This document shows, one piece after another, positions 1 to 45,141 of a stretch of 45,141 bases of DNA. Position 1 is the stretch's first letter. Each line of letters opens with the position of its first letter. The DNA comes from a virus. The translations under genes were made by a program, and so were the position numbers. The notes under the pieces were generated by a model, which was not told where the DNA came from, searched no databases, and saw only the letters and a program-made list of their open reading frames with translations. The stretch is from IMG/VR virus record IMGVR_UViG_3300028831_000169, positions 1-45,141 of that record; one strand, 5' to 3'.

Positions 1-100
1 CACGCAGCCCGCGCAGCCCACGCATCCCGCGCAGCCCGCGCAGCCCACGCATCCCACGCATCCCACGCATCCCACGCAGCCCACGCAGCCCACGCAGCCC
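1..100. repeat. Terminal direct overlap: bases 1-100 are identical to 45042-45141
   Basis: Unit-by-unit comparison of the 9-mers at both ends. The overlap lies wholly inside the tandem array. It therefore suggests a circular or terminally redundant assembly but cannot fix the copy number. Confidence 0.85.
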
Positions 101-644
101 GCGCAGCCCGCGCAGCCCGCGCAGCCCGCGCAGCCCGCGCATCCGGGTACTCCTCAAGTTTCCAATCTAGTCCCCGATTTTTAAGAGCAATTTCGAGCGA
201 TTCAGTGACTTTGTTTATGTCTCTGAGTGGACGGCCTAGTGCTTCCCGCCACAAAATTTGCTCACGCGCCATTTCGTTTTCAAAGCCCTTGAACACCTTT
301 GAAAAGCGTTCGATTACGGAGTTGATTTCATCAGTTGTAGCGAATCGTTCAATAGTGAGCTTGGAAGATCGCCATTTGTTCCCACGTTGGATTTTGTCGC
401 GTGAAGGATGAACGGCTAGAACCGCTGATGGTCGGCCAGTCGGCCACATTCCAACGATCTTGAACCCTGTCTCGATTGAATCGACGAAGTTCCAACCAGG
501 CGCGCACTCTTGATCGCCTTTGTCTAGGGTTACGCCGTTAAGCTTGAAGGGGAAAGTTTTGCCGTCCCATATCGGTTCCCCGCCTTGGATTGGGGATCGG
601 AAGTCGTGAGTGAGCAGCTTCCAGAATTGTTGTTTAGGGTTCAT
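1..644 (-). CDS. Tripeptide-repeat protein, N-terminal part. The ORF is open to the window edge and is absent from the supplied ORF track.
   Basis: ATG at 644..642 ([29 protein letters not shown]...[13 protein letters not shown]). I checked every codon of this frame down to base 3 and found no stop. From base 146 downward the frame reads [48 protein letters not shown]. Confidence 0.75.
2..145. repeat. 9-bp tandem array NCGCAKCCC (N=A/G, K=G/T), 16 units
   Basis: Direct reading. The units are perfectly phased, and the last unit (137-145) ends in G instead of C. Confidence 0.95.
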
Positions 645-697: not shown

Positions 698-937
698 TTA
701 GAGTAATCCTTTGGCGTCCAGTTCTTTGAGGTTGTTTAGCAATTCGGTAAACGCATCAACTTGGTATTTCACGCCGCTTATTACGCTTTGCCAATCTTTG
801 CGCTCAACGTCGCTACGGATCAAATCCATATCACGTTTTGCTTGCTCGGTAACTTGTCCGATTGGCGTATTTTCGTACCGCCAACTTCGCCCGATATGTC
901 CTGCTATTAGATACTCGCTGTCTTGCTGTGTTTTCAT
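698..937 (-). CDS. Hypothetical early protein (79 aa)
   Basis: Track ORF in the co-oriented leftward gene string. No domain recognised. Confidence 0.6.
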   Translation of the reverse strand: MKTQQDSEYLIAGHIGRSWRYENTPIGQVTEQAKRDMDLIRSDVERKDWQSVISGVKYQVDAFTELLNNLKELDAKGLL

Positions 938-4463: not shown

Positions 4464-4669
4464 TTCGAGACGAGTTTACAAATATTCTTTCGCGCGAGCG
4501 CCGTTATCAACTGAGGCATCAGAGGGATGGGCTTTGTCATTTGTGTTCGAGAAAGAAGGTAACGGCGTTCCATTGTTTGGAGCACGCTATAAACGTGCGT
4601 GAAGCGCAACGCACCAGAAACAAACATAAGCGTCGAAACGTAGGCGCTCTGACCTACCGTATCGCATGA
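4460..4669 (+). CDS. Hypothetical basic protein (69 aa from ATG 4460)
   Basis: ATGA overlap with the upstream stop. Its own stop overlaps the TerL start. Confidence 0.5.
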   Translation: MIRDEFTNILSRERRYQLRHQRDGLCHLCSRKKVTAFHCLEHAINVREAQRTRNKHKRRNVGALTYRIA

Positions 4670-6351
4670 ACGTCCAAGACATCACGGGGTTAGAGGAGCA
4701 CCCGGTTCTTCGTCAGATTCCCGATATTTTGCAGGGGGAAGAACGCGAAGCCGCGATCAACGTTCGTAAACAGATTTTAATAAACGAAGTACTCGATCCA
4801 CTCAGGAACGGGTTTGAGTTAGACATCTGGAAACTGGCTGACGATTGGCGCTCTAAGAAACGACTTCAATATCCTAAAGGGGTAATTTGGGAGATTGACC
4901 TTGGTGGAAATCGCAGCGGCAAAACAATGCGCGCGTCAAAAAGGGTAGTGGAAGATTGCGTTGCTAACCCCGGCCATATTTGGTGGTGTTGCGACGCTAC
5001 TGAGACACAGAGCAGGGCGAATCAACAGCGGTATATTTTCAAGCATCTGCCCTACGAATGGAAGCCTGGTGAGACAGGGAGACTGACAAAAAAGAATAGC
5101 CGGGTAACAAAGGTGACATACTCGGTGGCCGGAGGATTTACTGAGAACAACCTGATTCTTCCGAATGGGAGCGAGATTCACTTTAAGTTCTACGAAATGA
5201 ATGTGGCGAACCTGCCCGGTGTAGAGTTGGATGGGATTTGGGCAGATGAGTTGATACCGTTGCCATGGATTGAGACTCTCGTTTATCGCCTAACGAATCG
5301 TAACGGCATCTTTAATATCACCTTCACACCCGAACAAGGATACACCCCTACGGTTGCAAAGTTTCTTGATGGCGCGACAACATTGCAATGGGCTGACGCT
5401 AAACTGTGTCCACATTTTAATGAGGCCGGAGATTTATGCGGCTACGAACGAATCCCAAAAGTTCAACAACCTCTCGACGATAAAGCCATCGTGATCTACT
5501 TCTACAATGAAGATAATCCCTTCGGGAACTACGAGGGACTCAAAATGGATTTGAAGGGTAAGAGTAAAGCGGAAGTGTTGATGCGCGCATATGGAATAGT
5601 GAGCAAAGCCGCGCACGCGCAGTTCCCTTCGTTCAGTGAGGAGATACACGTAGTTGATCCTGATAAGATTCCCAAACAAGGCACGAACTTTCATGTAGTC
5701 GATCCTGCTGATGGCCGGAATTGGTTTATGATATGGGTGCGGATAGATGAGAAAGGTAGATGGTGGATTTACAGGGAATGGCCGTCACATGGACATTTAG
5801 GCGCGTATGTACCGGGGATAGGCGATCCGGGGCCTTGGGCGATACATGGGGCAGCGGCAGACGGCGAACGTGGCCCGGCGCAAAGTCCGTTCGGGTTTGG
5901 ACTGGACAGATACAAAAATGAAATCGAACGACTTGAAAAAGAAGGGGGCGACGAAACGGTTGAGCGTTGGATGGATTCGCGCTACGGAGCTTCCCCTACA
6001 ACTATTGAAGAAGGCACAACTACGCTTATCGAAAAAATGTCGGAAATCGGCATGGATTTTCTTGCGGCAAGCGGGAAGATGATTTCTGAGGGAGTAGATT
6101 TGATTGCAGATAAACTCGATTACGACAGAGACGTAAAGATTGGCGAATTTTCAGCTAGACTTGCGCGCCTCAATGAGCCACGTCTTTACGTATCGCGTAA
6201 TTGTCCCAACATGATTTTCGCTTTCAAGAATTGGACAGGCAAAGACAAGAACCACGGCGCGTGCAAGGATGGAATCGACTGCGCGAGATACGCGGTTCTG
6301 GCGGGAATAGACTACATTGGCGAGGACTCCTACACATGGAAACGATTTTGA
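4666..6351 (+). CDS. terL: Terminase large subunit
   Basis: Walker A GGNRSGKT and Walker B LDGIWADE. C-terminal RNaseH-like nuclease segment (FHVVDPADGRNWFMIWV). 561 aa. Confidence 0.9.
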   Translation: MNVQDITGLEEHPVLRQIPDILQGEEREAAINVRKQILINEVLDPLRNGFELDIWKLADDWRSKKRLQYPKGVIWEIDLGGNRSGKTMRASKRVVEDCVANPGHIWWCCDATETQSRANQQRYIFKHLPYEWKPGETGRLTKKNSRVTKVTYSVAGGFTENNLILPNGSEIHFKFYEMNVANLPGVELDGIWADELIPLPWIETLVYRLTNRNGIFNITFTPEQGYTPTVAKFLDGATTLQWADAKLCPHFNEAGDLCGYERIPKVQQPLDDKAIVIYFYNEDNPFGNYEGLKMDLKGKSKAEVLMRAYGIVSKAAHAQFPSFSEEIHVVDPDKIPKQGTNFHVVDPADGRNWFMIWVRIDEKGRWWIYREWPSHGHLGAYVPGIGDPGPWAIHGAAADGERGPAQSPFGFGLDRYKNEIERLEKEGGDETVERWMDSRYGASPTTIEEGTTTLIEKMSEIGMDFLAASGKMISEGVDLIADKLDYDRDVKIGEFSARLARLNEPRLYVSRNCPNMIFAFKNWTGKDKNHGACKDGIDCARYAVLAGIDYIGEDSYTWKRF

Positions 6352-6512
6352 AAAAACGGAAGCCTAGAAAGACGCAAATGCAAAAACTAGAAGAATACAT
6401 CGACAAAGCTCTTGTGCTGCCTGATAGAAGAATACAATGGCCTGACGATTTATTCTTAGCTGATGTTCGTAATACACCGTTTTTCCCTAGCGTGAATAAG
6501 CCAAAGGTTTAA
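6336..6512 (+). CDS. Possible small protein (58 aa)
   Basis: Internal ATG of track ORF 6201..6512, overlapping the TerL end. Weak support. Confidence 0.3.
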   Translation: METILKKRKPRKTQMQKLEEYIDKALVLPDRRIQWPDDLFLADVRNTPFFPSVNKPKV

Positions 6513-6519
6513 TAATTGT

Positions 6520-6786
6520 TTGAACTTGCGCTTGTTCAGCGGATACGCTACAAAGCGAAACCAAATGGGCGGAAACACTTCTCAACAAAAGAACATGACC
6601 CCGCAGTTGCAGCCGGTTAATCCATTCCTGAACCAGCCGCCACCGCCAGTCCAGATTCAACAGCCTAACGTGATGTCGCAACGAGGCGATCTAAACAGGG
6701 ACATTGAATCTTCATTTTACGGTGGTGTAGCACCGACTCCCACCCCTACTACTAGACCGTGGTGGGCGTCTTTGTTAGGCCAATAA
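6520..6786 (+). CDS. Hypothetical Gln/Pro-rich protein (88 aa; start uncertain)
   Basis: Track ORF directly upstream of the portal gene. Confidence 0.45.
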   Translation: MNLRLFSGYATKRNQMGGNTSQQKNMTPQLQPVNPFLNQPPPPVQIQQPNVMSQRGDLNRDIESSFYGGVAPTPTPTTRPWWASLLGQ

Positions 6787-6787
6787 C

Positions 6788-8905
6788 ATGTCAGCCGGTT
6801 CCGATGAACGTTTGGAGCTAGTGACTGCTCCAAATCTTGAACAAGTCGTCAAGGAACTTAATACCGCTCGCGCCGACGCCGATCAATATTGGCAGGACGC
6901 CCAGAGTGCTCACGCATATTTTAATTGCCTGTGGAAAGGGCAATCAGACGATTTACGTAAACATAGCGATGGTGAAGAGGAAGCGTTCCCGTGGGACGGT
7001 GCGAGCGATGCGCGAGTCCGAGTAGTCCAGCCGTTAATCCGTGAGCACGTTTCTTTCGCTATGTTTACGTTTTTACGTAGCAAAGTTCAGGCACGCGCTG
7101 TTCGTCCGTTGATAGAGGGGAGAGACAGTAATATTGCCGAGCGCATGTTGAAATGGCGCGTGTTTACGCACATGCGCCAGGAACTTTTAACCGAGCTTCC
7201 CCTTGCGTGGACGTGGATGTTTACGCGCGGCATCGTGATGATGCGAATCGAGTGGGAACAGCAACGCACGATTGAGGAAGTCCCTGTTACAGCGCAGGAC
7301 GCTCAGGCACTTTTACAATCAGTTGGAGGCGACGTGTCCGATCTTTTCGGTGATAGCGAACCTACCCCGCAACTGCTGGATATTATTCAGATGTTTTCGC
7401 CGGTGATCGACCGTGATCGTGCTCGAAAAATCGTAAAAGAACTTCGCACCGATCTGATGACAACGGTTCCCATAGTATTTCTGATCCAGAACAAACCCAA
7501 ATGGACGGCAAGACGTTTGGTGCATGACGTTTTGGTGCCGTCAAGTTGCAGCAATGTTCAGAATGAACGCTGGATTTGCGACCGCGAACTTGTGACTGAA
7601 TCAGAATTAACCGACAGAATCACGACCGAAAATTATGATGAAGACTTTGTTGAGGAAGCGATAAAGCACAAGGGCGAATTTGCAGGGTGGCATGTGCAGG
7701 ATCGTTATCAGGCGACAGCAATTGGCGGCGAACGCGATCTAATCGAGCTTCAACATTTTTATTCGCGTAGATTAGTAAAGGGTACGCCCTGTGTTTACCG
7801 GACAATATTTAACGAACCAACTGCCGGTCTATTCCCTGAGCTTGTAGGGGTACACGAAGTTCATCGTTACCGGCACAAACAATATCCGTTTGTAGCGTGG
7901 CGATGGCAGGCCGAACACCGGATGCTTCTGAACGAGCGCGGAATCGCTCACGAAGCGTGGAGCGATGAACGAGACATCAAACGGCAACAGGACGGACTCA
8001 ATGACAGAGGCGATTTAATCAATCGCCCGGTCATGTTTATTCCTACACTTCGATATGAAGCGTTGAAGGGACGGTTCAAGCCTGGTCATTACGTTGGGAT
8101 AAATCGGCCTAACGAACTTAATTTCGGGCCGATTCCGCCTTCAGACGGTACTCCGTTAAAGATAATGGAGCTAGTCAAAATGCGGTTGGAAGAACGCTTC
8201 GCGCTATTCGGAAACACTGTTGATCCAGCATTAAAACAGATTCGACGCGAACATTTGGCGGGACATTTACTTTCGCAGATGGAACAAGTCTTAGAACAAA
8301 CGTGGCAACTACAACAACAATACGAAACGAACGAGGAAGTTCAGAGAGTAGCGGGTAGAAGTTCAATGAATTTTCCTGCCACCACAAAAGAGATTCAGGG
8401 CAAATACGAAATCACGGCCACGATTGATACGCAGATGCTTAACGAAGCGTATGCGGAACAGAAGATAAATCTTCTTGAGAGAGCAATGGCGTTCAAACAA
8501 GAAGGATTACTTTTCAGAATGGCAGTTGAATTGATTGATCCCGATGCCGCCGACGCCATAGCTCAAGACCAGTCTAGTCCTGACGCGATGGAGAAAGAAC
8601 GAAAAGATGAGAAGCACGCTTTTGGATTGATGCTCGCGGGCGTAGAACCGGACTTCCCCGTTTTAGGAAACCACCAATTACGGATGCAAGTGATGCAACA
8701 GATAATGTCGCAACCGAACATGGCGCAACGTTTGGCAAATCTTCCCGACAGTCAGAAGCTTATTCAAAATCGGTTTCAGACGTTCCAACGCCAGATACAG
8801 CAACATCAGGTCAATCCGACAATAGGGAGAACACTTGCCACGCGCGCTTTCCAGCCGAACGCTGCTGCTGACGTAACAGTTTCAAGCAATGGCAGCGAAG
8901 CCTAA
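6788..8905 (+). CDS. Portal protein (705 aa)
   Basis: Size and position after TerL and before the scaffold and capsid genes. No motif verified. Confidence 0.65.
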   Translation: MSAGSDERLELVTAPNLEQVVKELNTARADADQYWQDAQSAHAYFNCLWKGQSDDLRKHSDGEEEAFPWDGASDARVRVVQPLIREHVSFAMFTFLRSKVQARAVRPLIEGRDSNIAERMLKWRVFTHMRQELLTELPLAWTWMFTRGIVMMRIEWEQQRTIEEVPVTAQDAQALLQSVGGDVSDLFGDSEPTPQLLDIIQMFSPVIDRDRARKIVKELRTDLMTTVPIVFLIQNKPKWTARRLVHDVLVPSSCSNVQNERWICDRELVTESELTDRITTENYDEDFVEEAIKHKGEFAGWHVQDRYQATAIGGERDLIELQHFYSRRLVKGTPCVYRTIFNEPTAGLFPELVGVHEVHRYRHKQYPFVAWRWQAEHRMLLNERGIAHEAWSDERDIKRQQDGLNDRGDLINRPVMFIPTLRYEALKGRFKPGHYVGINRPNELNFGPIPPSDGTPLKIMELVKMRLEERFALFGNTVDPALKQIRREHLAGHLLSQMEQVLEQTWQLQQQYETNEEVQRVAGRSSMNFPATTKEIQGKYEITATIDTQMLNEAYAEQKINLLERAMAFKQEGLLFRMAVELIDPDAADAIAQDQSSPDAMEKERKDEKHAFGLMLAGVEPDFPVLGNHQLRMQVMQQIMSQPNMAQRLANLPDSQKLIQNRFQTFQRQIQQHQVNPTIGRTLATRAFQPNAAADVTVSSNGSEA

Positions 8906-9409: not shown

Positions 9410-10336
9410 ATGGCAGAAGAAACCTTAGCGGCGCAAATCCTTTCGGACTCGAAAGATAATCCCGATATTCTTCACGAGGAACAAACTCCCACGGATGAAT
9501 CCAAGCCAAAAGTCACCGACGAAACGCCGGAGGTTACGGAGGAAACTAAAACTCCTGAAACAGTTGAGACGGAAGAAACAACTGAGAAGCCGGAAGTAAA
9601 AGCTGAAACGAAGCCGAGCGTTGAAGATCAGATCAAAGCCCTCTCCGATCAGTTAAAAGATTTACAAGCCAAACTTTCGCAGCCGGAAAAACCCGTTCAA
9701 CCAACAATCGACCCCGACAACGACGATCTGTTGGCTAACGTGTATGACGAGCAAGGATTTCAACGAGCAGAAAAAGATTTGGAAGAATTGGTTCGATTCG
9801 CTGAAACGCATCGTGACGGCGCTTACGATTACGAAGTTAAAGACGCCAAGGGCAACGTTACAAAACGAGATTATACGCCTGAGCAAATCACGAACATAAA
9901 ATTACGCGCGGAGGCGGCGCTTCGCGCCATCCCGAAGCGCCGCGAATACGTTGCTTTGAGAGCACGCTGTGACGCCAGAGCGGTTGAAGTGTATCCCGAT
10001 CTTGCAAAAGAGGATTCGAACTGGCGAAAAGACGCCGCACAAATGTTGGCCGCAGTTCCGCAACTGGCGCAAATCCCTGATTTTATGATCTGGATCGGCC
10101 ATGCGTTACGAGGGCGCGACGAATTTTTGAAAGAACAAGCCGGTAAAAGTAACGGACACTCAACTGCGGTGGACAGAATCAAAGCCGCCCCGAAAGAAGT
10201 CGCCCCGGCTACTGCAAGTACTCGCGGAACAATCCCGCACACGGAAGCCAAAAAGAAAGAAGCCGCGTTAAACCGATTGAAAACCGAGCGCAGCGAAGAT
10301 GCCGCAGAAGAATATTTAGCAACGTTAGGATTCTAG
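9410..10336 (+). CDS. Scaffolding-like protein (308 aa)
   Basis: Highly acidic E/K/T-rich N-terminus and predicted coiled coil. Lies immediately upstream of the capsid gene. Confidence 0.55.
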   Translation: MAEETLAAQILSDSKDNPDILHEEQTPTDESKPKVTDETPEVTEETKTPETVETEETTEKPEVKAETKPSVEDQIKALSDQLKDLQAKLSQPEKPVQPTIDPDNDDLLANVYDEQGFQRAEKDLEELVRFAETHRDGAYDYEVKDAKGNVTKRDYTPEQITNIKLRAEAALRAIPKRREYVALRARCDARAVEVYPDLAKEDSNWRKDAAQMLAAVPQLAQIPDFMIWIGHALRGRDEFLKEQAGKSNGHSTAVDRIKAAPKEVAPATASTRGTIPHTEAKKKEAALNRLKTERSEDAAEEYLATLGF

Positions 10337-10355
10337 TAAAACAAGGAGAAACCAC

Positions 10356-11447
10356 ATGCCAGCCGTAACAACCAAGGATGAAATCGTAAGGGAAGATATT
10401 AGCAACGTGTACCTGAACATTGACGTTCGGGACACGCCGCTTCTCAACGACATCAAACGCGGAGAAAAACTTAAAAACGTCGATCTGTTTTCGTGGGAAG
10501 TCGAGAAGTACACCGACAACTACGACACGGTAGGAGTACCGGAAAACAAGGATGTCGATCAGTTCGAGGGCAACAAACAGTATCAACTTTACAATCGCTC
10601 CATGAAATTCTGGGGCAAACCGCATGTCACGACCGAATCCAACGACATCAACGTTACCCCTGCTGATTTCGGTAAGATGCGGAAAGAAATCACGAACAAA
10701 ACGATTGAAGCCAAGCGCAAAATCGAGAAACGCATCGCTTCCGATAACGACAGTAAAACCGATGACGGCGTATCACAGGGACGCGAGTTCATGGGGCTTG
10801 GCCGGATCATCAACGATACTACTTCGGTTGGTAGTTCGGGAGCGGCGCTTCCATTCACCGATACGCAGACTGCGATCAATTCACTTTTTAGGACGCCCAC
10901 CGCGCAGATTTACGTTGGCGCGTTGACGGACGTAAACGGAAGCGGTGATGTCACTGCGACTTTTGATGACGCTACGTTCATCGGAATGTTAAAGAGCCGG
11001 TTCGATAACGTAGGCCAAATGAACGAACTGGTTTGCTATTGCGATTCGGTTCTGAAACAGCATTTCTCACAATACATTTCCGGCAGGTACGCGGCGAATG
11101 TGCGGGGATTTACGGCAATAGCCCGGACACCGCAGCAAGCGATTTCGCAAAAAGAATATGCGCTCTACGGAGCGGATATTCTTCAGACCGATTTTGGCAA
11201 TATTCAGATTAAACTGATGAGCTTTATGCCGCGTCGCGCGGATGACGGCACGGTTGCTGGACGCGGCTACTTTCTGGACATGACAAAGATCATGCTTCGT
11301 CCGAGCGGCCTATGGCTGACTTACATGCCGTTGGAGGACAAGGGCGCAGGCCCGCGCGGGTTGATCCAGTCGATCTTGGGATTCCAATACGGCGATCCCA
11401 GAGGACACATGAAAGTTGATCCGAACGTTTTGCAGACAACTAGTTAA
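10356..11447 (+). CDS. Major capsid protein (DUF5309 / SU10-type, HK97 fold)
   Basis: The N-terminal pattern DISNVYLNIDVRDTPLLNDIKRGEKLKNVDLFSWEVEKY matches my recollection of that family. Strong SD. 363 aa. Confidence 0.7.
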   Translation: MPAVTTKDEIVREDISNVYLNIDVRDTPLLNDIKRGEKLKNVDLFSWEVEKYTDNYDTVGVPENKDVDQFEGNKQYQLYNRSMKFWGKPHVTTESNDINVTPADFGKMRKEITNKTIEAKRKIEKRIASDNDSKTDDGVSQGREFMGLGRIINDTTSVGSSGAALPFTDTQTAINSLFRTPTAQIYVGALTDVNGSGDVTATFDDATFIGMLKSRFDNVGQMNELVCYCDSVLKQHFSQYISGRYAANVRGFTAIARTPQQAISQKEYALYGADILQTDFGNIQIKLMSFMPRRADDGTVAGRGYFLDMTKIMLRPSGLWLTYMPLEDKGAGPRGLIQSILGFQYGDPRGHMKVDPNVLQTTS

Positions 11448-11923: not shown

Positions 11924-12211
11924 ATGCGAAAGGCTCTAGTAATTGTTATTATCGGAGTTGGAATACCAGGTCTGATGTTCAGCGGGATTTTCGAGGGCAA
12001 AACCGGAACGCACATCGGACAAAAGGCAACCGATAACATTGGGTTCTGGGGCGCTTCGCCGGTTCCTAAACAGATCATTGCAGGGACGCCCTCCGCAGCA
12101 AACCTTGAAAGTGCTTTGGCAAAAGCTGGACTCGTGGCGACAGCTACGCCAACAGCGACGGCAACCGCAACCGCAACGGCTACTCCAACGCCAACTCCCG
12201 GTGGTGAATAA
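11924..12211 (+). CDS. Small protein with an N-terminal TM/signal segment and a C-terminal (TA)n/(TP)n tail (95 aa)
   Basis: Internal ATG 11924 of the track ORF (MRKALVIVIIGVGIPGLMF...[24 protein letters not shown]). Confidence 0.5.
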   Translation: MRKALVIVIIGVGIPGLMFSGIFEGKTGTHIGQKATDNIGFWGASPVPKQIIAGTPSAANLESALAKAGLVATATPTATATATATATPTPTPGGE

Positions 12212-15830: not shown

Positions 15831-18077
15831 ATGTCGCTACAAAACAGAAAACGGTTACTGAACAGTCTGCAAACTGTTCCGGTAAATGGCGCTGAACCGG
15901 CTTCTGTTAAGACGCTAGTTGACCAGTTAGAGGCCGAACTGACAGCATTAGGCACTCCAACAATAGCGCATACAACCAATCTTCTGAAGGGAAGCGGTTC
16001 TGGTAACGCTTCTGATTCGGGGATTGCTGCTTCGGATGTAGTAGTCAAATCCAACGCCACAAGGCCGACTACTCTCAACCAGGTTATTACGATTTTAGTA
16101 AACGCTGGGCTGTGTTCACTGTTGATGGTTAGCTCTGCGTTCGGAACTCAATTTGGAGATATTCCCGCTACGACTGATGTTTCTACGCTCTGGGAATCTC
16201 CAATAGGATATACGCCGGGTAACGTCCTAAATTCCGGTACGCCGCTTGCAGGTCAGTCGGCGCGATGGATTGATGCCACGCATATTGAGGGAGTGCCAAC
16301 ACCTACACCGAGCGCGACTTTTACGCCTACGGCCACAGCTACATCGACAGCAACGGCAACTTCTACCGCCACTTCCACCCCCACCGCCACAGCGACACCT
16401 ACGGCTACGCCTGCTGGAAATGTTTACGCAAGCGCGACTCCGTTAGCCAATCAGTTTGCCGTTTTCACAGACGCCAATCACATCACAGGCGCAACCGCAA
16501 CCGCTACTTTCACGCCAACATCAACCGCGACTTCCACTGCAACTTCGACTGCTACATATACCCCTACTCCCACGGCGACAGAAACGCCCACTGCTACTCC
16601 GGCTGGCAATGTTTATGCGTCAGCAACGCCATTGGCTAATCAACTGGCTATTTTTACCGACGCGACACATATCACCGGAGCGACAGCAACAGCGACGTTC
16701 ACTCCTACCGCGACCGCCACAAATACTTCCACGCCAACAGCAACCGCAACCGCTACCCCAACAGCAACCGCTACGCCCTCAGCCACCCCAGCGGGAAATG
16801 TTTACACAAACACTTCAAACACATACTCCACTGGTACACAAGATTTCACTGGCGCGACCAATACCCTTGTCACTACTCAATCCGCGTCCGACAACAGCAC
16901 CAAAGCCGCGTCAACGGCATATGTCACTACTGGAATATCAAATGCTATTGCTGGCGTAAATCCAGCGGTAGCGGTTCAAGCAGCGACAACTTCTGCATCG
17001 AACACCAGCGGACTTACGTACAATAACGGGATAAGCGGAATAGGCGCGACTCTGACCGGGCCGGCAAACACGGCTCTTACCGTTGACGGATACACATTCA
17101 CTGCTCTTGGACAACGGTTGCTTGTCAAGAACGACACGCAAAGTCCTTCAGGGGCGTTCAACGGAGTCTATTACGTCACTCAACTTCAGGCGCTTGGGTT
17201 GGGACTGGTTCTAACCCGCGTTTTGGATTACGACACTCTAAGCGACATTAATAATACCGGAGCGATTCCAGTCGTTAATGGAACGTCCAACGCGAATACG
17301 TCTTGGCTTCTGACTTCCACTGTAAACACGGTTGGAACTGATCCTCTGACGTATTCTCAATTCTCTATTGCTCCAACCAATTTACTTACAAGTGGCGGCG
17401 CTCTTGGAACGCCTTCATCTGGTACTTTGACGAATTGCTCAGGAACGGCGGCGAGTTTAACCGCTGGCAATGCAACCAAATGGACGACAGGACGTACAAT
17501 TTCACTTACAGGCGATGTTATCTATACCAGCGGCAGTCTAGATGGAAGTGCTAACGTCACAGGCACGGCCACGCTTGCAAACATTCCAGCAATATCAGGC
17601 GCTAATCTCACCGGTACAGCATCAAGTTTCACTGCCGGAAACGTGTCCACCGTACCGACCACGAATAGCAAGACGTTCAATCTCGGTGGAAATTTCGGAG
17701 TGGCTTGGGCGAAATATTCGTTTGCTACAGATGGCGGACTTGTTTCAACGATCACGCCCGGAGCAACGGCGAACACCACCATTCCAGCCAACGCGATCTT
17801 GGTTGGAGGCGTCGTCAACGTAACAACGGCGGTCACGTCCTCTGGTTCGGCCACGGTTGCGATTGGATGCGCGGGAACGGGCGGCAGCACGACTACGCTT
17901 TTGGCCGCAACCGCTAAAACATCCCTGACATTGAACGCGGTACTTGCGACGGTTACAACTTTTGCCGCTCCTAAAAAACTAACCGGGGCGGGAGGAATCA
18001 CTTTCACAATCGGAACCGCTGCGTTGACCGCAGGAGTCATTGAAGTCTGGGTGTTGTACTTTGTCGCAGCCGCTTAA
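15831..18077 (+). CDS. Tail fibre protein with tandem 63-aa repeats and Thr/Ala/Pro/Ser linkers (748 aa)
   Basis: [34 protein letters not shown]... is repeated. The C-terminal half is Gly/Thr/Ala-rich and beta-like. Confidence 0.65.
16212..16810 (+). repeat. In-frame tandem repeat of 189 bp: two full units (16410-16598 and 16599-16787), a degenerate unit before them and a truncated unit after
   Basis: The units start with CC(T/G)GCTGG(A/C)AATGTTTA(C/T)GC and are exactly 189 bp apart. They differ by many substitutions, so this is not an assembly duplication. Confidence 0.85.
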
Positions 18078-34168: not shown

Positions 34169-35503
34169 ATGAAACTGAACGTAGCAAAACAAACTATTCG
34201 TACGCACGAAGGCGCTCCGGCTAAACACATCAATCCCGAACTACAGCTTCGCAGGTCTGTAATGTCCTGTATGCTGTGGGAAGGGGAGTTTTACGAGAAC
34301 GGAGAATCTATATCTAAACGCATTGGCGAAACTATTGCTAAGGTTCGACCTGAAGCAGTCGCCGCGATTGCAGTCGAGGCACGCGAGAAGATGAAACTCC
34401 GGCACGTTCCACTTTTGATCGTGCGCGAGATGGCGAGACTCGCATCCCACAAGGGACACGTTGCCGAAACTCTATCTCGCGTGATCCAGAGGCCAGATGA
34501 GCTTACCGAATTTCTGGCGATCTACTGGAAGGACAAGCGGCAAGCATTGTCCGCTCAGGTGAAGCGTGGACTTGCTGCTGCGTTTCAGAAGTTCAACGCC
34601 TATTCGCTTGCCAAGTACAATCGGGACGGCGCAATTAAACTTCGGGACGTGCTGTTTTTGTCTCACGCCAAACCCAAAGACGATGAACAGGACAAACTAT
34701 GGAAGCAGCTAATTGACGGCACACTTCCTACTCCCGATACTTGGGAAGTAGAATTGTCGAGCGGTAAGGATAAAAAAGAAGCTTGGGCGCGATTGCTCTC
34801 CGAAAACAAACTCGGCGCTCTAGCGTTGCTTCGGAATCTTCGGAACATGAAGCAAGCTGGAATTTCAGACGACGCCATGAGACACGCCCTGAACGTCATT
34901 AAACCTCAACGTGTTTTGCCGTTCCGATTCATTGCGGCTGCTCGGTTTGCTCCCAATCTTGAGCCTGAATTAGAGCAAGCAATGTTCAAATGTCTTACGG
35001 ACAAAAGCAAGATTCCTGGCCTAACCGTTTTGATGGTTGATGTATCTGGTAGCATGGACGCTTCAATTTCAGGCAAGAGCGATCTACAACGCCTTGATGC
35101 TGCTTGTGGACTTGCAATGCTGGCGCGGGAACTCTGCGAGAAAGTGGCCGTGGTGACGTTTTCGGAAAAACTGGTCGTAGTTCCTGCTCGTCGTGGATTC
35201 GCTTTGCGTGATGCAATAGTTCAGTCGCAATCTCACGGTGGCACATATTTAGGTGAGGCTGTATCTCAAATTAAGAATGAAGAGTTTGATCGGTTAATCG
35301 TAATTTCGGATGAACAGGCGCATGATCCTGTTCCTGATATTGGGCGAAAAGCCTACATGATAAACGTTGCCAGCAATAAAAACGGGGTTGGCTACGGGTC
35401 GTGGACGCACATTGATGGATGGAGCGAAGCCGTACTGGATTTCATAAAAGAATTGGATGGATCACAAGAAGTTCTTGCAGAAACAAGCTCGCAAGGGTGG
35501 TAA
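34169..35503 (+). CDS. TROVE-domain Ro60/Rsr-like protein with a C-terminal vWA domain (444 aa)
   Basis: N-terminal TROVE-like pattern (LQLRRSVMSCMLWEGEFYENG..., LALLRNLRNM). vWA MIDAS motif DVSGSM plus a downstream T and D. RBS AAGAAGGA. Confidence 0.8.
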   Translation: MKLNVAKQTIRTHEGAPAKHINPELQLRRSVMSCMLWEGEFYENGESISKRIGETIAKVRPEAVAAIAVEAREKMKLRHVPLLIVREMARLASHKGHVAETLSRVIQRPDELTEFLAIYWKDKRQALSAQVKRGLAAAFQKFNAYSLAKYNRDGAIKLRDVLFLSHAKPKDDEQDKLWKQLIDGTLPTPDTWEVELSSGKDKKEAWARLLSENKLGALALLRNLRNMKQAGISDDAMRHALNVIKPQRVLPFRFIAAARFAPNLEPELEQAMFKCLTDKSKIPGLTVLMVDVSGSMDASISGKSDLQRLDAACGLAMLARELCEKVAVVTFSEKLVVVPARRGFALRDAIVQSQSHGGTYLGEAVSQIKNEEFDRLIVISDEQAHDPVPDIGRKAYMINVASNKNGVGYGSWTHIDGWSEAVLDFIKELDGSQEVLAETSSQGW

Positions 35504-37576: not shown

Positions 37577-38059
37577 CTAATTTGAATGAAGTGATTCGAT
37601 GAAAGCCCCGAGACTTATCTTTCCGACGCGCAAAACATAACGTTTTATCCTGCCCTTCGCGTAATCCATCCCCAGTTTGATGATCGTCCCTTGGGGAGCT
37701 GCGTAAATCGGCTCGATGTTACGCATAACCTCGTCAATCGCTTCTTGAATTTCGGTAGCCTTTGCTTGTCCAAGCTTGCCGGTGAATGCGACGCACGTCA
37801 CCTTGTACTCCACACACAATTCAGGAAGGCGGGGCTTGTCTATGGCGGAATGCTTGCCACGATCTTTCGTAACTACTATCCATCCGCCCTGTTGTGCCAA
37901 GCTAGGCACCCAAACTGAATCGCACCGTTTAGCCCTATATTCTTCAAATAGGTGGCGAACTTTCAGCGACGGATAAGCCGGGGTGTAGTAATGGAGCAAG
38001 CGTGCAGCAATCGGGTGAGCGACGCATTCATCCAGAAAGATTTTCGGGCTTAAAATCAC
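37577..38059 (-). CDS. DUF5615/Mut7-C-like PIN-type nuclease (toxin candidate)
   Basis: The pattern KIFLDECV...CDSVWV...GGWIVVTKDRG fits the FLaDEnv...D...ilvT.D signature. Confidence 0.5.
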   Translation of the reverse strand: MILSPKIFLDECVAHPIAARLLHYYTPAYPSLKVRHLFEEYRAKRCDSVWVPSLAQQGGWIVVTKDRGKHSAIDKPRLPELCVEYKVTCVAFTGKLGQAKATEIQEAIDEVMRNIEPIYAAPQGTIIKLGMDYAKGRIKRYVLRVGKISLGAFIESLHSN

Positions 38060-43767: not shown

Positions 43768-44511
43768 TTAAAAAGGAATCTCGCCCTCGTCGTCCCTGCG
43801 TTGATCTAATTCGTCAGGCTGTTGAGATTTTGACGCTTGAATTTCGCGGTTCGCTTTTTCTTCGTCGTTTACAGGTTCAGCTTGCTCGACTCGTGTACGC
43901 TTAAAGTAATTCCTGAGATATTCCTGTAATTGAACATCGAGGCCGGTCGCGGCGTCGTTTACGTCCTGCGGTAGACCGAGAAGTTTGAATACCGGCGTCT
44001 GATATTTTATGCCGCCTTTTTTCCCGCTTTTGGATTCTACAATCTGGATGCCGCTTTTGTAGATGTTGGCGCGGTTCTCTTTTTCAAATTCCATCCATGC
44101 TTGAAGCGCCGAACCGTGAAACTGGATACTGCCAAGTGCAAGTTCGCGTTTCTCATCGGTAAAGGCCATGTAACAGTTGAGGGTGAACTTGCCGCCATTA
44201 GCTTTTACCTTGTCTTTGATGTCGGAGTAAAAGCCTTCTGCAATCGGTTCGCGCATCTTGAAGGATTTAACGATGAAGGGTTCGCTCCTAGTATCGTGAA
44301 CTTCGTTTGCGTAGATCGAGGCTTCGCTTGCATCATGCCAGCCTTTAACGGTTGCCAACCGATCTAGGAGAATGAAATCGAACGGGACAGTGACTTCTAC
44401 GTTGGTTTTGTTTTCCTTGTCGTAATACCGGAGGTTGCCGTTGCCTCCCTGCCACTCGAACCAGCGCGTGCAAGGGTTTGGAATGTTATCTATCGGGTTT
44501 GATCTGCTCAT
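43768..44511 (-). CDS. Single-stranded DNA-binding protein, T7 gp2.5-like body with a bacterial-SSB-type acidic ...DDEGEIPF tip
   Basis: The acidic C-terminal tail ends in IPF. The internal segment KFTLNCYMAFTDEK resembles gp2.5 FKFKCYASFQDKK (from memory). Confidence 0.55.
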   Translation of the reverse strand: MSRSNPIDNIPNPCTRWFEWQGGNGNLRYYDKENKTNVEVTVPFDFILLDRLATVKGWHDASEASIYANEVHDTRSEPFIVKSFKMREPIAEGFYSDIKDKVKANGGKFTLNCYMAFTDEKRELALGSIQFHGSALQAWMEFEKENRANIYKSGIQIVESKSGKKGGIKYQTPVFKLLGLPQDVNDAATGLDVQLQEYLRNYFKRTRVEQAEPVNDEEKANREIQASKSQQPDELDQRRDDEGEIPF

Positions 44512-44747
44512 GTTTGGGGTAGCCTGTCTCGTTGTTTACGTTGGTCTATTGGTGTCGCTGCTGCGCATACCTGAATTTTGTCCTGTTTCTGATCTGAAAA
44601 TTTGGCTGCTCTAAGTCTAGAAGCGTGCCAGTCACAAAGTACTGTGTCTTTTCCGTTTACTTGCTCTACTTGTGTTGCGGTGGTTAAGTCTGAGCATCGT
44701 TCACACCAAATGCGGTTACGAATTAAAAACCGTTCGTAGGCGTTCAT
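44508..44747 (-). CDS. Hypothetical Cys-containing protein (79 aa)
   Basis: Track ORF. Its ATG overlaps the stop of the repeat protein. Its 3' end carries motif copy B. Confidence 0.55.
   Translation of the reverse strand: MNAYERFLIRNRIWCERCSDLTTATQVEQVNGKDTVLCDWHASRLRAAKFSDQKQDKIQVCAAATPIDQRKQRDRLPQT
44520..44566 (-). promoter_or_regulatory. Recurrent motif, partial copy B (GCGCAGCAGCGACACCAATAGACC...CAACGAGACAGGCTA)
   Basis: Ends 10 nt upstream of the SSB ATG. Shares the 13-mer ACGAGACAGGCTA with copy A. Confidence 0.4.
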
Positions 44748-45141
44748 GGGTTTATTGAGAATCCAAGGGTGTTTTTTTCTGTTGGGATCGCGATTTCAAG
44801 CCCGTTGAGGTAAGCGTCCCTGATTCCTGCCGTGAGTAGATCGATAGGGTGTGTAATCCACTTGTTAAATGACGCGAAATTGATGGTGAGCGCATCCCGC
44901 GCATCCCGCGCATCCCCCGCATCCCCCGCATCCCGCGCAGCCCGCGCAGCCCACGCATCCCGCGCAGCCCACGCATCCCGCGCAGCCCGCGCAGCCCACG
45001 CATCCCACGCATCCCACGCATCCCACGCAGCCCACGCAGCCCACGCAGCCCGCGCAGCCCACGCATCCCGCGCAGCCCGCGCAGCCCACGCATCCCACGC
45101 ATCCCACGCATCCCACGCAGCCCACGCAGCCCACGCAGCCC
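44744..45141 (-). CDS. Tripeptide-repeat protein, C-terminal part. Open to the window end, absent from the track.
   Basis: Third minus frame: ...[71 protein letters not shown]-stop. The TGA (44746..44744) overlaps ATG 44747 (ATGA). The frame is consistent with 1..644 once the 100-nt overlap is removed (45041 mod 3 = 2). Confidence 0.75.
44890..45141. repeat. 9-bp tandem array NCGCAKCCC, 28 units (N=A/G/C, K=G/T)
   Basis: Direct reading. Units 9-18 and 19-28 have the identical variant order, which gives a 90-bp higher-order period. Confidence 0.95.

Follow-up and report, generated by a model that had tools for sequence, protein, structure and literature searches.

Introduction

The best-known tripeptide repeat of phages is the collagen-like Gly-X-Y of tail fibers and prophage proteins, which is encoded by 9-bp units and variable in length, and the arrays of antifreeze glycoproteins are likewise built from 9-nt units amplified by slippage. 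Here we describe a different tripeptide array, of the form (D/A)-A-(R/W), carried by a gene that lies across the two ends of a viral contig (IMG/VR virus record IMGVR_UViG_3300028831_000169, positions 1 to 45,141; this entire stretch of 45,141 nt is called the window in what follows). The array separates a conserved N-terminal domain from a conserved C-terminal domain, and we consider it practically certain that one true protein-coding gene joins the window ends, that it belongs to an uncharacterized and undescribed family borne almost exclusively by phages, and that its array, homogenized within each genome, shows the pattern expected of selection for the tripeptide combined with concerted evolution through slippage or unequal exchange. 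To the whole explanation, which adds a putative role to the gene, the family and the evolution of the array, we assign a probability of roughly 75%.

Fish antifreeze glycoproteins are repeat proteins of the (Ala-Ala-Thr)n type (PMC6410882, PMC3441883), and the window array shares with them the Ala-Ala-X tripeptide, the 9-nt unit and a variable copy number. The likeness is an analogy only: the antifreeze glycoproteins are secreted polyproteins of eukaryotes that bear O-linked sugars on Thr, and they have neither Trp, Arg and Asp nor a flanking globular core, whereas the third position of the window array is W or R instead of Thr and its protein begins with a globular domain, so that an antifreeze-type array was rejected as a class. 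A collagen-like repeat was rejected because Gly does not fill every third residue (it makes up 6% of position 1); in addition, position 2 of the window array is Ala, the array is predicted to be alpha-helical and not a triple helix, and the gene stands among small non-structural genes.

Borg elements carry nucleotide-perfect in-frame tandem repeats that evolve fast, have arisen independently and are under selection at the amino acid level (PMC9879509). Both there and here, nucleotide-perfect units of a length divisible by 3 lie inside open reading frames (ORFs); however, Borg repeats are found in many unrelated genes of one element, whereas here one family keeps one tripeptide across many phages and varies it by a binary D/A and R/W code. 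In architecture, the gene product is comparable to the DUF7666 proteins (PF24703) of phages and giant viruses, in which a beta-rich N-terminal domain of ~95 aa is also followed by a repeat region and in which motifs of the types K-x-x-T-H-D, C-x-x-G-W-N and G-x-W-P-x-G-R-P also occur. It differs from them in that its array has 3-residue units and not ankyrin, DUF4116 or pentapeptide repeats, in that the array is inserted before a conserved C-terminal domain, and in that the protein scores below the Pfam threshold. A pentapeptide repeat protein was itself considered and rejected, since the 9-bp period corresponds to 3 residues and not to the 5-residue A(D/N)LXX, and no Pfam match was obtained.

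A Gene Joining the Two Ends of the Window

An initial annotation of this DNA had proposed a hidden gene connecting the window ends, and the joined sequence bears this out. Positions 1-100 are an exact duplicate of the last 100 nt (45042-45141), and the 9-bp array occupies both ends, with 15.4 copies at 3-141 and 27.9 copies at 44891-45141 (Tandem Repeats Finder). The minus-strand frame that begins with the ATG at 644, which the annotation had followed to base 3, runs to base 1 without a stop and, once the 100-nt overlap is removed, continues in phase to a TGA at 44746..44744, as had been described; the in silico join and translation that it had called for gives one in-phase product of 313 aa, made up of 167 N-terminal residues, 33 tripeptide units (the last of which is DAL) and 47 C-terminal residues. 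The predicted N-terminal part and the 33 assembled units thus stood, while the predicted total of ~314 aa and the 48-aa C-terminal domain had to be corrected; nor can 33 be taken as a minimum, since the number depends on allele and assembly.

The only other exact end overlap is one of 10 nt, with which the array would have 43 units in place of 33, and overlaps of 19 and 28 nt contain 1 and 2 mismatches. All four overlaps are 1 mod 9 in length, so that none of these joins would disturb the 9-bp register or the reading frame. This choice of copy number, and the fact that the 100-nt overlap lies wholly within tandem repeat, a classic source of false joins, would also suit an artifact in which false circularization through the repeat had created a chimeric gene. 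That explanation is vanishingly improbable: two sister assemblies (L046 and L047) carry the gene intact with the same neighbors on both sides, another contig (L001) keeps the N-terminal domain adjacent to the counterpart of the window's right-end neighbor gene, and the same N- and C-terminal domains are paired in all homologs. A false join is therefore contradicted by the intact copies, and only the exact unit number is uncertain. The division of the gene follows from the linearization of a ~45.0-kb circular (or circularly permuted) phage genome inside the gene's own array.

On the minus strand, residues 1-167 are encoded at 144..644, an open frame for a DUF7666-like domain, a three-helix subdomain and a strand, modeled with a predicted local distance difference test score (pLDDT) above 90. 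The N-proximal piece of the array (1..143) consists of units G[A/C]T-GCG-[C/T]GG, read as DAR, AAR, AAW and DAW, and the C-proximal piece (44888..45141) of 28 units, which together with 1-143 less the 100-nt overlap make up the 33; a 90-nt higher-order repeat is present within the array. The C-terminal domain (residues 267-313; 44747..44887) is modeled as a helix followed by a beta-hairpin, also with pLDDT above 90. Bases 44744-44747 read tcat, or ATGA on the minus strand, so that the stop of the repeat gene overlaps the start of the next gene (44508..44747, minus strand, 79 aa), as had been claimed; the same 4-nt overlap is found in two other contigs (L001 and L002), and because of it the two genes are probably translated together. 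A second 79-aa gene lies upstream in the same leftward block (698..937, minus strand), and in L050 and L051 it stands directly upstream of a complete repeat gene. The remark that only two repeat-derived ORFs were listed at the right end, 44752..45111 (MRG frame) and 44865..45134 (GCV frame), was also accurate; the list contained just these because ORFs that run off an end go unlisted.

Alleles of the Array Within One Phage

Searching with the exact products of both neighboring 79-aa genes retrieved assemblies of the same phage from other samples. A contig of 45,077 nt from JGI sample 3300039426 (L046) contains the whole gene, with 286 aa and 24 units, and one of 45,069 nt from ENA soil sample ERZ923675 (L047) contains it with 280 aa and 22 units. 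Both are linearized at a different place from the window and have its upstream and downstream genes, the downstream 79-aa gene adjoining the complete repeat gene in each; their N-domain DNA (501/501) and C-domain DNA (144/144) are identical to those of the window, and the flanks are 99.4-99.9% identical. An intact gene in independent assemblies with identical flanks shows that the junction is real.

The arrays are related to one another by whole units and blocks of units. The 23-unit array of L048 is the window array minus exactly one 10-unit (90-nt) block, the array of L047 is that of L048 minus one AAR, and L046, L049 and L054 share another arrangement that ends in (DAR DAR DAG)x3. With alleles of 22, 23, 24 and 33 units in one phage, and with allele classes that recur across independent samples and assemblers, array length varies in the phage population, and 33 units is one allele (or 43, should the ends truly overlap by only 10 nt). 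How fast the array changes is seen in a pair of close relatives, P0036 and P0037, whose N-terminal domains are identical (163/163) yet whose arrays have 9 and 19 units. Since the array gains and loses whole 9-bp units and blocks of them, it always stays in frame. These four alleles with identical flanks are a clear case of population-level variation in repeat length in a non-structural phage gene.

Many contigs end inside the array (L004, L009, L015, L029, L032, L033, L035, L036, L037, L048, L049 and L052-L056). It breaks short-read assemblies, and it can itself supply the "direct terminal repeat" by which viral genomes are called complete; for these reasons the gene is missed by gene callers, a practical point for the reading of "complete" viral contigs. 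Two homologs (P0023 and P0042) shift to the GCV or MRG frame within the array, after which the frame of the C-terminal domain is lost or regained; the repeat may have been misassembled in them, or they may be true frameshift alleles. One contig carries two family genes 4.3 kb apart (L017), and two further loci (L018 and L036) lie on the same 113,660-nt IMG/VR contig with near-identical flanks and different arrays; such pairs could be paralogs or a concatenated assembly of two strains.

An Uncharacterized Phage-Borne Family

With the N- and C-terminal domains concatenated as the query and the array left out, 44 proteins of 121-331 aa were matched, the majority with 208-331 aa, and the best of them covered 96-99% of the query as single proteins; in nearly all 44 the two domains flank a tripeptide array. 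A scan of viral contigs, mostly of 25-60 kb, added 36 further loci, and more than 60 homologs have the layout of N-domain, tripeptide array and C-domain that had been proposed for the window. Among 1.84e9 representative proteins, a profile search gave 300 matches at E<=1e-3 and 164 at E<=1e-30. The family amounts to ~300 clusters at 50% identity that share a DUF7666-like core, 2-36 units of (D/A)-A-(R/W) (a repeat region of 7-109 aa) and a conserved C-terminal domain. In the window protein this domain has the motif T-x-G-I-R-D-A-Y-x-x-G-L, and T285, G287, A291, G295 and P301 are invariant in the family. It is an uncharacterized family with a distinctive and readily recognized signature, and it is common among phages that have not been cultured. 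The main units are DAW (185), AAW (155), DAR (140) and AAR (139); position 1 is A in 36%, D in 35% and G in 6%, position 2 is A in 80%, and position 3 is W in 40% and R in 34%. In very divergent members a non-repetitive, aromatic-rich segment of ~70-100 aa takes the place of the array.

The annotation had recognized no characterized phage protein with such a repeat, and our searches agree: none was found in Pfam, PHROGs, NCBIfam or PADLOC, in 50,697 phage genomes or in the literature. Neither the N-domain nor a DUF7666-positive homolog had a tblastn match in the 50,697 deposited phage records. Among 185,579 species genomes, a DNA pattern for the C-domain motif retrieved one true member and six chance aldehyde dehydrogenases. 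This single member lies on the chromosome of a Solirubrobacterales metagenome-assembled genome (OY970329.1; L041), with the gene at about 6226-7134 and 29 units. It is probably part of a prophage and, as such, would hint at actinobacteria as hosts of the high-GC members.

Selection on the Peptide and Homogenization of the DNA

The annotation read the 9-bp array as (A/D)-A-(R/W/G), and comparison among phages supports this frame above the other two. When each of 21 arrays (408 units) was compared with its own consensus, the deviations at unit nucleotides 1-9 numbered 27, 160, 5, 2, 6, 0, 174, 22 and 0, so that variation within arrays is almost entirely a matter of D<->A changes at nucleotide 2 and R<->W changes at nucleotide 7. 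Nucleotide 6, the four-fold degenerate position of the central Ala codon, does not vary at all within arrays; between arrays it differs, with 8 of them having G there, 7 having C and 6 having T. Phages also differ in writing Arg as CGG or AGG and Asp as GAT or GAC, so that relatives have various DNA units, among them GCTGCGCGG, GCCGCCAGG and GACGCTAGG, for a peptide that stays the same; in the other frames the peptide changes or stops arise, for example with the unit GACGCTAGG.

A peptide that is kept although its codons differ shows selection on the translated frame together with concerted evolution. Judged from these codon patterns, selection is on the peptide, which keeps Ala in the middle of the unit, D or A before it and R or W after it. 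With no synonymous variation inside an array and toggles of D/A and R/W only, the family illustrates cleanly how concerted evolution and selection at the peptide level act together in nature.

These data also bear on the idea that the array acts as DNA, as origin iterons, a packaging site or a terminal repeat, and that its open frame is incidental. The window ends do fall in the array, and iterons can lie inside a coding gene, as in lambda, where ori lies within gene O. A conserved DNA unit is not found, however, and this lack of conservation disfavors such a role; in addition, sister assemblies end elsewhere, the gene is internal in most related contigs, and the units are contiguous without spacers. 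Iterons or packaging-site repeats were rejected as a class on the same grounds, differing units and the lack of spacing, and we regard a DNA-level role as highly improbable. The target of a diversity-generating retroelement was rejected too: the window lacks a second copy of the array, and R<->W is a C<->T change in CGG/TGG arrays and not an adenine-specific one (reverse transcriptase was not screened for).

Predicted Structure of the Core and the Array

The AlphaFold2 model of the window protein has an overall pLDDT of 84.9 and a predicted template modeling score (pTM) of 0.77, with residues 1-167 and 266-313 above a pLDDT of 90. In the N-terminal part, the model shows a beta-rich DUF7666-like domain (~1-100) and a subdomain of three helices (103-156), followed by a strand (162-165) whose end lies immediately before the array; the array is drawn as long helices (169-209, 225-251 and 256-273). 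A homolog with 2 units is predicted to form a single compact fold (pLDDT 90.5, pTM 0.83). From these models, the core is a compact alpha/beta structure composed of a divergent DUF7666-like N-domain, the three-helix subdomain and a C-terminal helix with a beta-hairpin, and the array is inserted between the strand and the C-domain helix. Because 2-unit homologs exist and are predicted to fold compactly, the anchor points of the array must be close together, and a long array would have to loop out of the core, perhaps as an Ala-rich helical hairpin, which is drawn with low confidence.

The relationship of the core to DUF7666 is visible at the level of the family. Twelve of 41 members match the Pfam model at E<=0.01, and two stand near its gathering score of 27 bits (P0029 with 27.4 bits and P0026 with 26.4 bits); the window protein itself has no match to this model at E<=1. 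Foldseek against the BFVD library of viral structures found DUF7666 models of phages and giant viruses (E 6e-4 to 4e-3), and in those viral proteins the domain is joined to ankyrin, DUF4116 or pentapeptide repeats. The full model had no match in the PDB, and the best neighbor of the compact model was the rifampin ADP-ribosyltransferase Arr (2hw2; E 0.026, probability 0.94, 143 columns), a weak match with template modeling (TM) scores of 0.27 (query) and 0.41 (target) and a root-mean-square deviation of 8.3 A.

This neighbor raises the question of whether the protein is an enzymatic effector, its core a divergent Arr-like ADP-ribosyltransferase (or NAD-binding) fold and its array a targeting or avidity domain, as the ankyrin or pentapeptide repeats may be in other DUF7666 proteins. 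Besides 2hw2 being the best solved-structure neighbor of the N+C core, a phage model named "Rifampin ADP-ribosyl transferase" is among the BFVD matches, and weak motifs are collinear in the two proteins (THD/LHGT, VEP/IVEP and W-x-x-HP...GL-x-IAI/DWVGHPPEQL...GLAVIY). Against this, hhalign with the Arr family was not significant (probability 0.5-3.2%), there was no match to the Arr model in Pfam (PF12120), the candidate triad is not conserved (H13 in 50/62, W50 in 54/62 and E78 in 37/62, with His in the E78 column of the window protein), and the window family has a helical subdomain and an array in addition. Assignment to Arr or to the H-Y-E ADP-ribosyltransferases found no basis either in sequence and profile similarity or in invariant His, aromatic and acidic residues; the link is a lead and not a finding, and we consider an enzymatic effector distinctly improbable.

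The three-helix subdomain (residues ~105-157; W-R-x-A-L-x-R-P-x-x-D...V-x-x-L...R-G-L) gave the sole match in profile searches of PDB sequences: it paired, without significance (E 0.2), with the cell-wall-binding CW_7 repeat from the phage lysozyme Cpl-7 (PDB 5i8l).

A Possible Role for the Array

The composition of the array is tightly held (~46% W, ~46% D, with a net charge of -0.06 +/- 0.22 per unit), and the order of its units is statistically random. Random order combined with a held composition suggests that the array probably works through its composition and its number of units and not through a fixed surface. In the explanation that we prefer, the array would be a Trp/Arg interaction module whose length sets the number of binding units; mounted on the conserved DUF7666-like core, it would tether or cluster this core on a host target during infection. 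This specific role is put forward tentatively, as a proposal with the odds against it.

A passive array would be simpler, a tolerated expansion in a permissive surface loop that serves as a spacer or is neutral, with the core alone functional. The random order of the units and the absence of any periodicity or pairing signal would suit it, as would the range of 2 to 36 units, which includes presumably functional homologs almost without an array, and the divergent members with a non-repetitive segment in its place. A neutral loop would degenerate, however, and the constancy of the peptide counts against one: the same pattern is found in lineages that use different codons, with virtually no drift at other sites, and the array holds ~15% Trp and a balance of D and R near neutrality. 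We therefore think a passive array unlikely.

Several observations weigh against the interaction module as well. The joined protein has no match in Pfam, PHROGs, NCBIfam or PADLOC (the best being phrog_5193 at E 0.19), the literature holds nothing on the repeat strings or on DUF7666, and for a function there is neither experimental nor annotation evidence in these databases, the PDB or the literature. The order of units shows no W/R or D/A autocorrelation, no helical periodicity and no D-W association, nor the antiparallel pairing of charges or of Trp that a packed hairpin would predict; these negative tests give no positive support for such a hairpin, and the middle of the array, with a pLDDT below 50, may be a hairpin, disordered or in another conformation. 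Homologs with 2-4 units exist, so that a long array is not essential to the core, and no sigma-70-like promoters were found.

A bolder version of the Trp/Arg module, which we consider doubtful, is that of a new protein element, composition-coded and independent of order, in which Trp and Arg would act as cation-pi residues, Ala as spacers and Asp as a balance of charge. Slippage by 9 bp would adjust, in the phage population, how many of these residues are present, and the result would be either a condensate-like clustering of the core or an unseen period-3 Ala/Trp/Arg fold. A Trp/Arg module with an adjustable number of binding units, or a new fold, would be of interest to phage-host biology and to protein design, and an order-independent, composition-coded array would mean that phages carry a genetically adjustable avidity module.

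Genome Context and Mobility

The window is a novel phage genome of ~45 kb and 49% GC that encodes a terminase (4666-6351) and a major head protein (10356-11447), and the repeat gene is part of a leftward block whose genes are small and in many cases overlap. Scans for terminators, composition and tRNAs found nothing. A conserved partner gene was looked for in 27 loci and was not found. One homolog (P0001) is 78% identical to the window protein, yet the portal of its carrier phage is only 22% identical to that of the window; lacking a conserved neighbor and occurring in an unrelated phage, the gene behaves as a stand-alone, horizontally exchanged cassette. The 96.7-kb contig L001 (ENA ERZ27262780), from a phage with this portal identity of only 22%, carries the 78%-identical homolog at 10001-10741, followed directly by a gene with 73% identity to the window gene at 44508..44747. 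A fragment of the window phage (L056) comes from that sample too, which suggests cassette exchange between co-occurring phages.

Such exchange would fit an arms race, in which the protein is sensed by host immunity or serves as an anti-defense decoy and changes in the array are selected for escape or retargeting. The four alleles in one phage population with identical flanks would accord with this, as would movement between unrelated phages and a gene that stands alone among small leftward genes. PADLOC nevertheless gave no match to known defense-associated families, the gene comes without host or defense context, and slippage alone is expected to vary the number of repeats with no need for selection. 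We judge an arms race to be quite unlikely, and the placement in an early arm with anti-defense genes that the initial annotation suggested is not established, its sole basis having been the position in the leftward block.

Two other genes were noted in the window. A 160-aa protein in the same leftward block (37577-38059, minus strand) has a PIN_10 (PIN-like nuclease) domain (E 2.4e-10), and a 444-aa protein at the boundary of the rightward and leftward blocks (34169-35503, plus strand) matches phrog_850 ("RNA-binding protein"; E 7.5e-56). Three further short tandem repeats have units of 18 bp (12137-12189), 24 bp (16491-16543) and 12 bp (16735-16771), each a multiple of 3; the latter two lie inside a 748-aa ORF (15831-18077, plus strand), and these may be in-frame repeats in a structural protein.
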